Assembly: GCF_002854065.1 (NCBI RefSeq)
Contig: NZ_CP024147.1
Source: Escherichia coli
GTDB taxonomy: Bacteria; Pseudomonadota; Gammaproteobacteria; Enterobacterales; Enterobacteriaceae
DNA: 64,000 nucleotides
Strand: one strand, 5' to 3'
A program made the position numbers and the translations under genes. The notes beneath the pieces were generated by a model. The model was not told the DNA's origin. It worked only from the letters and a program-made list of their open reading frames with translations, and ran no database searches. Within the stretch, counting starts at the first letter, position 1, and each line of letters starts with the position of its first letter. Shown here in pieces: positions 39,338 through 41,475 of this stretch.

Positions 39338-40105
39338 GGTAATGACTCCAACTTATTGATAGTGTTTTATGTTCAGATAATGCCCGATGACTTTGTCATG
39401 CAGCTCCACCGATTTTGAGAACGACAGCGACTTCCGTCCCAGCCGTGCCAGGTGCTGCCTCAGATTCAGGTTATGCCGCTCAATTCGCTGCGTATATCGC
39501 TTGCTGATTACGTGCAGCTTTCCCTTCAGGCGGGATTCATACAGCGGCCAGCCATCCGTCATCCATATCACCACGTCAAAGGGTGACAGCAGGCTCATAA
39601 GACGCCCCAGCGTCGCCATAGTGCGTTCACCGAATACGTGCGCAACAACCGTCTTCCGGAGCCTGTCATACGCGTAAAACAGCCAGCGCTGGCGCGATTT
39701 AGCCCCGACGTATCCCCACTGTTCGTCCATTTCCGCGCAGACGATGACGTCACTGCCCGGCTGTATGCGCGAGGTTACCGACTGCGGCCTGAGTTTTTTA
39801 AATGGCGGAAAATCGTGTTGAGGCCAACGCCCATAATGCGGGCGGTTGCCCGGCATCCAACGCCATTCATGGCCATATCAATGATTTTCTGGTGCGTACC
39901 GGGTTGAGAAGCGGTGTAAGTGAACTGCAGTTGCCATGTTTTACGGCAGTGAGAGCAGAGATAGCGCTGATGTCCGGCAGTGCTTTTGCCGTTACGCACC
40001 ACCCCGTCAGTAGCTGAACAGGAGGGACAGCTGATAGAAACAGAAGCCACTGGAGCACCTCAAAAACACCATCATACACTAAATCAGTAAGTTGGCAGCA
40101 TCACC
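39338..40105 (-). mobile_element. insAB: IS1 insertion sequence (768 bp) with insA and insB; no target-site duplication
   Basis: Ends GGTAATGACTCCAACTTATTGATAGTG ... GTAAGTTGGCAGCATCACC; InsA 91 aa (39775..40050) and InsB 167 aa (39353..39856) on the minus strand; 9-bp flanks differ (GGAGCCGTC vs TTGAGCCTG). Confidence 0.95.
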
Positions 40106-41475
40106 TTGAGCCTGTAAAACGTACCACTCGCGCTTATCGTGAAGAAGCAATTATTAAATCCGGTATGAACCCGTTCCTGCTGGATAGCGAAGATGTGTTT
40201 ATCGATTTACTGACCGACAGCGGCACCGGGGCGGTGACGCAGAGTATGCAGGCCGCGATGATGCGCGGCGACGAAGCTTACAGCGGCAGCCGCAGCTACT
40301 ATGCGTTAGCCGAGTCAGTGAAAAATATCTTTGGTTATCAATACACCATTCCGACTCACCAGGGCCGTGGTGCAGAGCAAATCTATATTCCGGTACTGAT
40401 TAAAAAGCGCGAGCAGGAAAAAGGCCTGGATCGCAGCAAAATGGTGGCGTTCTCCAACTATTTCTTTGATACCACGCAGGGCCATAGCCAGATTAACGGC
40501 TGTACCGTGCGTAACGTCTATATCAAAGAAGCCTTCGATACGGGCGTGCGTTACGACTTTAAAGGCAACTTTGACCTTGAGGGATTAGAACGCGGTATTG
40601 AAGAAGTTGGTCCGAATAACGTGCCGTATATCGTTGCAACCATCACCAGTAACTCCGCAGGCGGTCAGCCGGTTTCACTGGCAAACTTAAAAGCGATGTA
40701 CAGCATCGCGAAGAAATACGATATTCCGGTGGTAATGGACTCTGCACGCTTTGCTGAAAACGCCTATTTCATCAAGCAGCGTGAAGCAGAATACAAAGAC
40801 TGGACCATCGAGCAGATCACCCGCGAAACCTACAAATATGCCGATATGCTGGCGATGTCCGCCAAGAAAGATGCGATGGTGCCGATGGGCGGCTTGCTGT
40901 GCATGAAAGACGACAGTTTCTTTGATGTGTACACCGAGTGCAGAACCCTTTGCGTAGTTCAGGAAGGCTTCCCGACGTATGGCGGCCTGGAAGGCGGCGC
41001 GATGGAGCGTCTGGCGGTAGGTCTGTATGACGGCATGAATCTGGACTGGCTGGCTTATCGTATTGCGCAGGTGCAGTATCTGGTCGATGGTCTGGAAGAG
41101 ATTGGCGTTGTCTGCCAGCAGGCGGGCGGTCACGCGGCATTCGTTGATGCCGGTAAACTGCTGCCGCATATCCCGGCTGATCAATTCCCGGCACAGGCGC
41201 TGGCCTGCGAGCTGTATAAAGTCGCCGGTATCCGTGCGGTAGAAATTGGCTCTTTCCTGTTAGGCCGCGATCCGAAAACCGGTAAACAACTGCCATGCCC
41301 GGCAGAACTACTGCGTTTAACCATTCCGCGCGCAACATATACTCAAACACATATGGACTTCATTATTGAAGCCTTTAAACATGTGAAAGAGAACGCGGCG
41401 AATATTAAAGGGTTAACCTTTACCTACGAACCGAAAGTATTGCGTCACTTCACCGCAAAACTGAAAGAAGTTTAA
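40106..41475 (+). pseudogene. tnaA: Tryptophanase tnaA lacking promoter, tnaC leader and first 15 codons (junction inside codon 16, at IS1)
   Basis: In-frame translation directly after IS1 reads [31 protein letters not shown]..., matching TnaA from about residue 17; rest of ORF intact to KLKEV stop. Confidence 0.85.

Follow-up and report, generated by a model that had tools for sequence, protein, structure and literature searches.

How does a tryptophanase gene come to start in the middle of its sixteenth codon, directly against an insertion sequence 1 (IS1) element whose other end lies in the remains of an unrelated porin gene? This is the arrangement around tnaA in a 64,000-nucleotide stretch of Escherichia coli DNA (assembly GCF_002854065.1, contig NZ_CP024147.1), the whole of which is called the window here. 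An earlier note, made from the letters of the window, had taken the junction for the product of recombination rather than of a simple insertion, and for one breakpoint of an IS1-mediated inversion. Comparison with near-identical genomes makes it very likely that the intact IS1 does lie at one end of a 46.3-kb chromosomal inversion, as one of two opposed IS1 copies that bound it; the route by which the inversion arose, and what it would mean for the production of indole, are considered below.

The identity of the element follows from its length of 768 bp, from its terminal inverted repeats (GGTAATGACTCCAACTTATTGAT and GGTGATGCTGCCAACTTACTGAT, matching at 18 of 23 positions; as read in the window, the element starts GGTAATGACTCC... 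and finishes ...GGCAGCATCACC) and from its insA and insB' frames, joined through a -1 frameshift at an A6C motif. The identical copy in the complete genome of E. coli CUWW06, a wastewater isolate, is annotated as 'IS1-like element IS1B family transposase' with a programmed frameshift. Being intact, the element may still be active. Its sequence is a 100% match to thousands of plasmid-borne IS1 copies across the Enterobacteriaceae, and IS1B is so ubiquitous on plasmids that the variant does not identify the organism. What the element does not have is the 9-bp target duplication typical of the family: its flanks read GGAGCCGTC on the porin side and TTGAGCCTG on the tnaA side, and they lack a duplication because they derive from loci that originally lay 46 kb apart. 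A GAGCC 5-mer common to both flanks was considered as a duplication and rejected, since it is offset by one base; applied to another locus (L034), where the IS1 is a simple insertion, the script used in the comparison did recover a clean duplication of 9 bp. The missing duplication argues against a simple insertion, as had been proposed, and not against the identity of the element as IS1.

Beyond the left inverted repeat (IRL) of the IS1 the sequence continues TT GAG CCT GTA AAA CGT ACC, which in alignment to the intact gene (5' end ATG GAA AAC TTT AAA CAT CTC CCT GAA CCG TTC CGC ATT CGT GTT ATT GAG CC) is tnaA from nucleotide (nt) 47, the second base of codon 16, just where the earlier note had put it. 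From nt 47 on, the identity to two loci with intact tnaC-tnaA (L025 and L026) is 100.000% over 6,950 bp, and the 5' truncation is therefore the sole lesion in tnaA. With nt 1-46 gone there is no full-length tryptophanase of 471 amino acids (aa), and IS1 takes the place of the upstream tnaC and promoter; tnaB follows downstream in the same orientation, intact but deprived of the operon promoter. Neither tnaC, the tna leader and the tnaA 5' end (sought with a 3,050-bp query spanning the neighbouring toxin gene, tnaC, the leader and the tnaA 5' end) nor the 5' end of the porin gene was found anywhere in the 64-kb window, in agreement with the claim that promoter, leader and the first 15 codons had been removed. 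Beyond the right inverted repeat (IRR) lies the truncated porin, unrelated to tnaA as had been said, which matches PF02264 (LamB), is annotated as 'carbohydrate porin' in relatives, and aligns to the intact gene of the reference genome described next (locus L003, 12019-13092 within 12019-13398). The portion that would encode the start of a full-length LamB barrel is gone, signal peptide included, and the remnant is a pseudogene.

That reference is E. coli 100416 (NZ_CM128593.1), in which the porin gene and tnaCAB are both intact and the identity to the window is 99.96-100%. Its genes are ordered as in other E. coli, dnaA and tnaA lying on opposite strands; in the window the + strand carries not only tnaA and tnaB but also dnaA, dnaN, recF and gyrB through uhpABCT, and the flip of the dnaA..uhpT block relative to the tnaA block, which the earlier note had suggested from the order in K-12, is thus confirmed. 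Aligned to 100416, the window runs forward up to the IS1 and in reverse beyond it (Table 1), with breakpoints at 38,807/38,808 (porin) and 5,073,204/5,073,205 (tnaA nt 47/46) of the 100416 sequence. The inverted segment is 46,286 bp long, and its right breakpoint alone falls inside the window. On it lie tnaA nt 1-46, tnaC, a gene for a ShET2/EspL2-like toxin, mnmE, yidC, rnpA and rpmH, followed by dnaA, dnaN, recF, gyrB and so on to uhpABCT, the DUF1198 gene and the 3' part of the porin gene. The portion of the segment that the window covers includes dnaA, dnaN, recF, gyrB, yidBAX, cbrA, ibpAB, yidE, a glv-type phosphotransferase system (PTS), yidJKL, emrD, ilvBN, uhpABCT, the DUF1198 gene and the truncated porin gene. 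From 1 to 38 kb the GC skew is positive, from 44 to 64 kb it is negative, and its cumulative curve peaks and turns at about 40 kb, at the IS1 junction; this agrees with an inversion but is supportive only, as gene-strand bias also contributes to the skew. Through the inversion, replication meets dnaA-dnaN-recF-gyrB head-on at a distance of a few tens of kb from oriC, an arrangement that is tolerated in the present lineage.

The other boundary of the inversion is seen in CUWW06, the closest complete relative, whose genome is 99.99% identical to the window and collinear with it over 31.2 kb (CUWW06 1-31200) and contains the same inverted block. Its near side reads uhpT - DUF1198 - porin' - IS1(-) - tnaB' - mdtL and its far end nlpA - IS1(+) - toxin' - IS2 - toxin' - mnmE(-) ... 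rpmH(-) - dnaA(+), where primes mark partial genes. A second, inverted IS1 is thus present at the other breakpoint of this complete relative, at a site that in the window's own genome lies beyond the left edge. Together with the forward and reverse alignment to 100416, this opposed copy upholds the proposal of an IS1-mediated inversion with one breakpoint here; the clean reciprocal junction that had been expected, with IS1 next to mnmE-tnaC and the porin 5' half, is not what CUWW06 contains. The order porin'-IS1-tnaA'-tnaB, with the same porin-IS1 junction, occurs also in a long-read assembly from the National Collection of Type Cultures (NCTC; GCA_900449015.1, locus L014), and short-read contigs L015-L017 share this porin junction exactly and end within IS1. 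The open reading frame (ORF) of the truncated porin (317 aa), which marks the clone, has index entries in 198 blocks of the public assembly collection, so that the clone cannot be called rare. Neither junction occurs exactly in any complete RefSeq E. coli genome, and the GTDB species-representative genomes do not contain the IS1-tnaA junction of the window. When searched exactly, the 436-aa TnaA remnant led only to genomes of normal gene order that carry other tnaA lesions; for the alleles of MnmE, GH1 and the ShET2-like toxin, every locus retrieved was of the ancestral type.

The point at which the IS1 meets the tna operon differs among these genomes. In the NCTC assembly the IRL end abuts tnaA nt 14 (...GGCAGCATCACC joined to AACATCTCCCTGAACCG...), leaving 33 bp more of tnaA than in the window, where the gene resumes at nt 47; in CUWW06 the junction lies within tnaB. 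The simplest reading of these nested junctions is a set of IS1-adjacent deletions that would have started from a junction at nt 14. The codon-16 junction of the window would then be a secondary product, so that no target duplication would be expected there in any case; the earlier note was right about its position, which by this comparison is not that of the original breakpoint. Measured against the window, CUWW06 lacks 39122-39337 at the porin end of the IS1 and 40106-42733 at the tna end, as well as sequence on both sides of the counterpart of the second IS1 of the window (51178-51945), and at the reciprocal junction of CUWW06 nt 1-832 of the toxin gene, tnaC and the tnaA 5' end are all gone. 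At least 39 IS1-matching pieces are present in CUWW06. All of the IS1 copies examined there (L001 7423-8190, L002 10410-11177 and L050 1433-2200) are without target duplication, and each has lost additional DNA on both sides in comparison with the window, which indicates repeated IS1-adjacent deletion in that genome.

These observations lead us to a scheme that, taken as a whole, we consider highly probable. The ancestral order would have been that of 100416, namely porin - DUF1198 - uhpT ... dnaA - rpmH ... mnmE - ShET2-like toxin - tnaC - tnaA - tnaB. One IS1 would have inserted in tnaA at nt 14-22, with its IRL facing the gene body, and another, in the opposite orientation, in the porin gene at codon 102-105. 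An exchange between the two copies, most likely by homologous recombination, would then have flipped the intervening segment, joining the 3' part of the porin gene to the IRR end and the body of tnaA to the IRL end, and placing the start of tnaA, with tnaC and the tna promoter, at a distance of 46 kb. In the sub-lineage of the window a further IS1-adjacent deletion of 33 bp would have taken the junction at nt 14 to its present place, nt 47 (codon 16).

Several points weigh against this scheme. Two ORFs that it predicts, a porin-5'::IS1 chimera of 113 aa and a toxin::IS2 ORF of 501 aa, are not on record, and in the metagenome contigs of the Joint Genome Institute (JGI) there is no exact match either to the predicted tnaA nt 1-22 (ending ...AAACATCTCC) followed by IRR or to the predicted junction of IRL and the porin 5' part. 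The reciprocal junction of the window's genome is outside the window, and that of CUWW06 is eroded on both sides, leaving no shared target duplications to compare. An intermediate in this lineage with IS1 at the porin site alone, or at tnaA nt 14 alone, was sought among 5,426 complete E. coli genomes and not found, an absence that carries little weight as the porin gene is present in only 27 of them. Finally, the indole-negative phenotype is a prediction from sequence, and the lack of a second tnaA in the source genome is assumed, since only the 64-kb window was read.

The missing single-insertion intermediates count in favour of another route, which we consider unlikely though deserving of attention: a one-step duplicative inversion in which a single IS1, in the porin gene or in tnaA, attacks the other site by intramolecular replicative transposition, dispensing with the two-insertion stage and with RecA-mediated exchange. 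IS1 forms cointegrates and promotes adjacent deletions and inversions, tnaA nt 14 acts like a preferred IS1 target, and the many IS1-adjacent deletions in the lineage represent the same reaction in another topology. Replicative events are, however, a minority outcome of IS1 transposition, and with so few porin-bearing complete genomes the lack of intermediates weighs as little for this route as it does against two insertions. The end structure that it would leave is identical to the product of homologous recombination, and the sequence gives the one-step route no advantage.

In the preferred scheme of two opposed insertions followed by homologous recombination, the outcome would be a silent tnaA and no indole from tryptophan, because the remnant is without promoter, leader, ribosome-binding site and start codon. 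The strain is thus predicted to be indole-negative unless another tryptophanase gene lies elsewhere in its genome. Induction of tnaA through tnaC is impossible, and tnaB is probably silent as well. It is very improbable that the truncated tnaA is expressed after all, by read-through or from a hybrid promoter with a start at Met36 (40165), to give an N-terminally shortened enzyme with some activity that would leave the strain weakly indole-positive. From residue 17 onward the codons of the catalytic domain are all undamaged, matching a functional allele at 100% identity, and hybrid promoters are reportedly created by IS1 ends; against this, no + strand promoter-like site was found in 39700-40400, where the sole such site is the insA promoter of the IS1, on the - strand and directed away from tnaA. 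Between the TGA at 40015-40017 and Met36 there is no ATG, GTG or TTG in the tnaA frame, and no Shine-Dalgarno sequence stands before Met36, the preceding sequence being AAATCCGGT. The N-terminal residues of tryptophanase form an inter-subunit arm in the tetramer, and the loss of 35 of them together with tnaC-dependent induction makes activity unlikely.

Weakest of all, and in our view close to untenable, is the idea that the porin'-IS1-tnaA' adjacency is an artefact of assembly across IS1 repeats that hides two simple insertions and no inversion: numerous IS1 copies, such as those of CUWW06, are a classic source of mis-joins and the window itself contains two that are 100% identical, but the adjacency recurs in the NCTC long-read assembly and, eroded further, in the complete genome of CUWW06, which speaks against the misassembly that the earlier note had named as a danger, the exact tnaA junction differs among the three genomes, as a common artefact would not, and a mis-join would leave both the missing target duplications and the 33-bp difference unexplained.

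The 5' end of tnaA has been reached by IS1 in other, unrelated E. coli also. In two chicken isolates with normal gene order, AH65 (locus L052, NZ_CP058302.1, 6273-7080) and AH62, an IS1 is joined to tnaA at nt 14 in the same orientation. The IS1 variant is not that of the window (97.1% identity, 22 differences), nor is the tnaA allele (35 differences over 1,400 nt), and a deletion on the IRR side has removed tnaC and the leader. A third variant, 93.2% identical, is present in E. coli 98194 (L022 3273-4049) as a simple insertion in the same orientation, with the duplication AGTAAAACG at tnaA nt 54-62, and other complete genomes have IS1 at various sites in the tna promoter and leader and elsewhere in the operon. 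Apparent 'same-site' insertions in E1, TUM9757, 23CRST009 and STEC384 were rejected, as they really lie at other points of tnaA or in the tnaA-tnaB interval. Two independent junctions at one nucleotide suggest a preferred target, within a sample that is small and a search that favoured one orientation. We tentatively raise the possibility, which we rate below even chances, that IS1 has a sequence-preferred hot spot at the tnaA 5' end (target AACATCTCC at nt 14-22, and some 40 bp beyond it), which would yield indole-negative E. coli recurrently and independently in unrelated lineages, and that the present lineage keeps a stepwise series of its erosion. The steps in that reading would be insertion, inversion, the 33-bp deletion and a multi-kb deletion and, if true, they would represent ongoing IS1-driven erosion in E. 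coli that are neither Shigella nor enteroinvasive E. coli (EIEC), during a burst of plasmid-type IS1.

Deletions and inversions promoted next to IS1 belong to classical IS1 genetics, and the present locus shows no visible mechanistic difference from them. As in the classical deletions, the IS1 is kept and the flank is lost from one end, with nested end points at the same terminus (nt 14, nt 47, tnaB), and as in the classical inversions the inverted segment is bounded by inverted IS1 copies. What sets the present case apart is that it comes from a natural population with three stages kept in separate genomes, a tidy natural case of IS1-adjacent deletion. A Tn9-type composite comes to mind as well, since two identical IS1 copies in direct orientation, at 39338 and 51178, bracket 11.1 kb of the window, from the tnaA remnant to a truncated effector gene; unlike such a composite, the pair has no surrounding target duplication and shows no sign of moving as a unit, and local deletion or inversion accounts for the two copies.

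A close biological parallel is the loss of tna in Shigella. According to the citations of Rezwan, Lan and Reeves (J Bacteriol 2004) in two later papers (PMC12795559 ref 68, PMC8537960 ref 33), insertion sequences, IS1 included, interrupt or delete tnaC, tnaA and tnaB in parallel lineages of indole-negative Shigella. The present lineage resembles these in that damage by an insertion sequence leads to an indole-negative genotype; it differs in that the host resembles an ordinary E. coli whose near relatives are undecayed, and in that the break in tnaA is joined to a distant porin gene through the 46-kb inversion. More generally, IS1 is the main expanding element in Shigella and EIEC, with strain-variable insertion sites and convergent metabolic loss, and its expansion was found only in Shigella and in EIEC of sequence types ST6 and ST270 (Hawkey et al. 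2020, PMC7373316). IS1 expansion, variable insertion sites and a lost metabolic function are seen in the present lineage also; in contrast to those pathogens, it has a plasmid-type IS1B, and the one CUWW06 plasmid examined is not an invasion plasmid. That plasmid, pCUWW06A, is a CTX-M-55/QnrS1 resistance plasmid. A Shigella or EIEC origin was considered and is unsupported, the nearest genomes being labelled E. coli and undecayed relatives being 99.96-100% identical; the evidence points to a lineage of ordinary E. coli that has undergone an IS1 burst. The kind of event is already known, since loss of tna through insertion sequences and inversions bounded by them are both established, and current understanding is unchanged. 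The indole test, however, is part of the textbook identification of E. coli, and a clone with this lesion would score negative and could be misidentified.

Table 1. Features of the window and alignment of its parts to E. coli 100416
Feature	Position in window	Strand	Remarks
IS1 (IS1B type), intact	39338..40105	-	100% identical to annotated IS1B of CUWW06
IS1 IRR	39338-39360		adjoins porin remnant
IS1 IRL	40083-40105		adjoins tnaA remnant
IS1 insA	39775-40050	-	91 aa
IS1 insB'	39353-39856	-	167 aa
IS1 A6C frameshift site	39793-39801		motif TTAAAAAAC at IS1 position 305
tnaA (tryptophanase) remnant	40106..41475	+	without nt 1-46, ribosome-binding site, tnaC and promoter
tnaB (low-affinity tryptophan permease)	41566..42813	+	415-aa ORF; PF03222; annotation in relatives
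LamB-family carbohydrate porin, truncated	38264..39337	-	3' 1,074 of 1,380 bp; codons 1-102 absent
Inverted block, right-hand part	1..39337		extends past left window edge; 100416 alignment, CUWW06 annotation
Aligned part	1-530		100416 5,080,154-5,080,683, forward
Aligned part	26246-39337		100416 25,716-38,807, forward
Aligned part	40106-49365		100416 5,073,204 down to 5,063,945, reverse
DUF1198 (yicN paralogue)	37793..38245	+	PF06711; annotation by the Prokaryotic Genome Annotation Pipeline (PGAP) of 100%-identical CUWW06 and 100416 loci
Second IS1	51178..51945	-	100% identical to first, same orientation, without target duplication

The porin, whose truncation the earlier note had recognized, is not a K-12 gene; it is part of a rare accessory PTS/GH1 island, found with the porin in the 27 complete E. 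coli genomes mentioned above. The island lies between uhpT and adeD in the order DUF1198 - porin - PTS IIA - GH1 - IIC - IIB - LacI, so that the DUF1198 gene is its first and adjoins uhpT. The second IS1 of the window replaces 515 bp of the ancestral sequence, as represented by 100416, including the 5' end of a gene for an 802-aa pentapeptide-type type III effector.

Three further regions of the window stand out by composition or content. Between yieH and phoU, an island of very low GC content (0.30-0.40) at 48900-56400 contains two large type III effector-like genes, in the place that cbrBC, yieKL and the bgl operon occupy in K-12-type loci. Between ilvN and uhpA, at 29500-32600, GC content is also low (about 0.41) and there are two long ORFs of 435 and 490 aa, annotated as hypothetical and with no Pfam match on record, one of which is frameshifted in CUWW06. 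Between yidX and cbrA, at about 8900-9100, lies only a 114-bp gene fragment; in K-12 the dgoRKADT galactonate operon is at this place, and the operon seems to be missing in the lineage.

The toxin gene carried by the inverted segment, which encodes a 723-aa protein of the ShET2/EspL2 family (PF07906), lies between mnmE and tnaC in ancestral-type loci (L026 11504-13675; L048 10001-12172) and is absent from K-12-type loci. Its remnants in CUWW06 (L002 11178-11764 and 13095-13853) are cut by IS1 and split by IS2, the latter with about 5-6 bp of duplicated junction sequence, judged from the overlap of the aligned pieces (L048 11414-11419).

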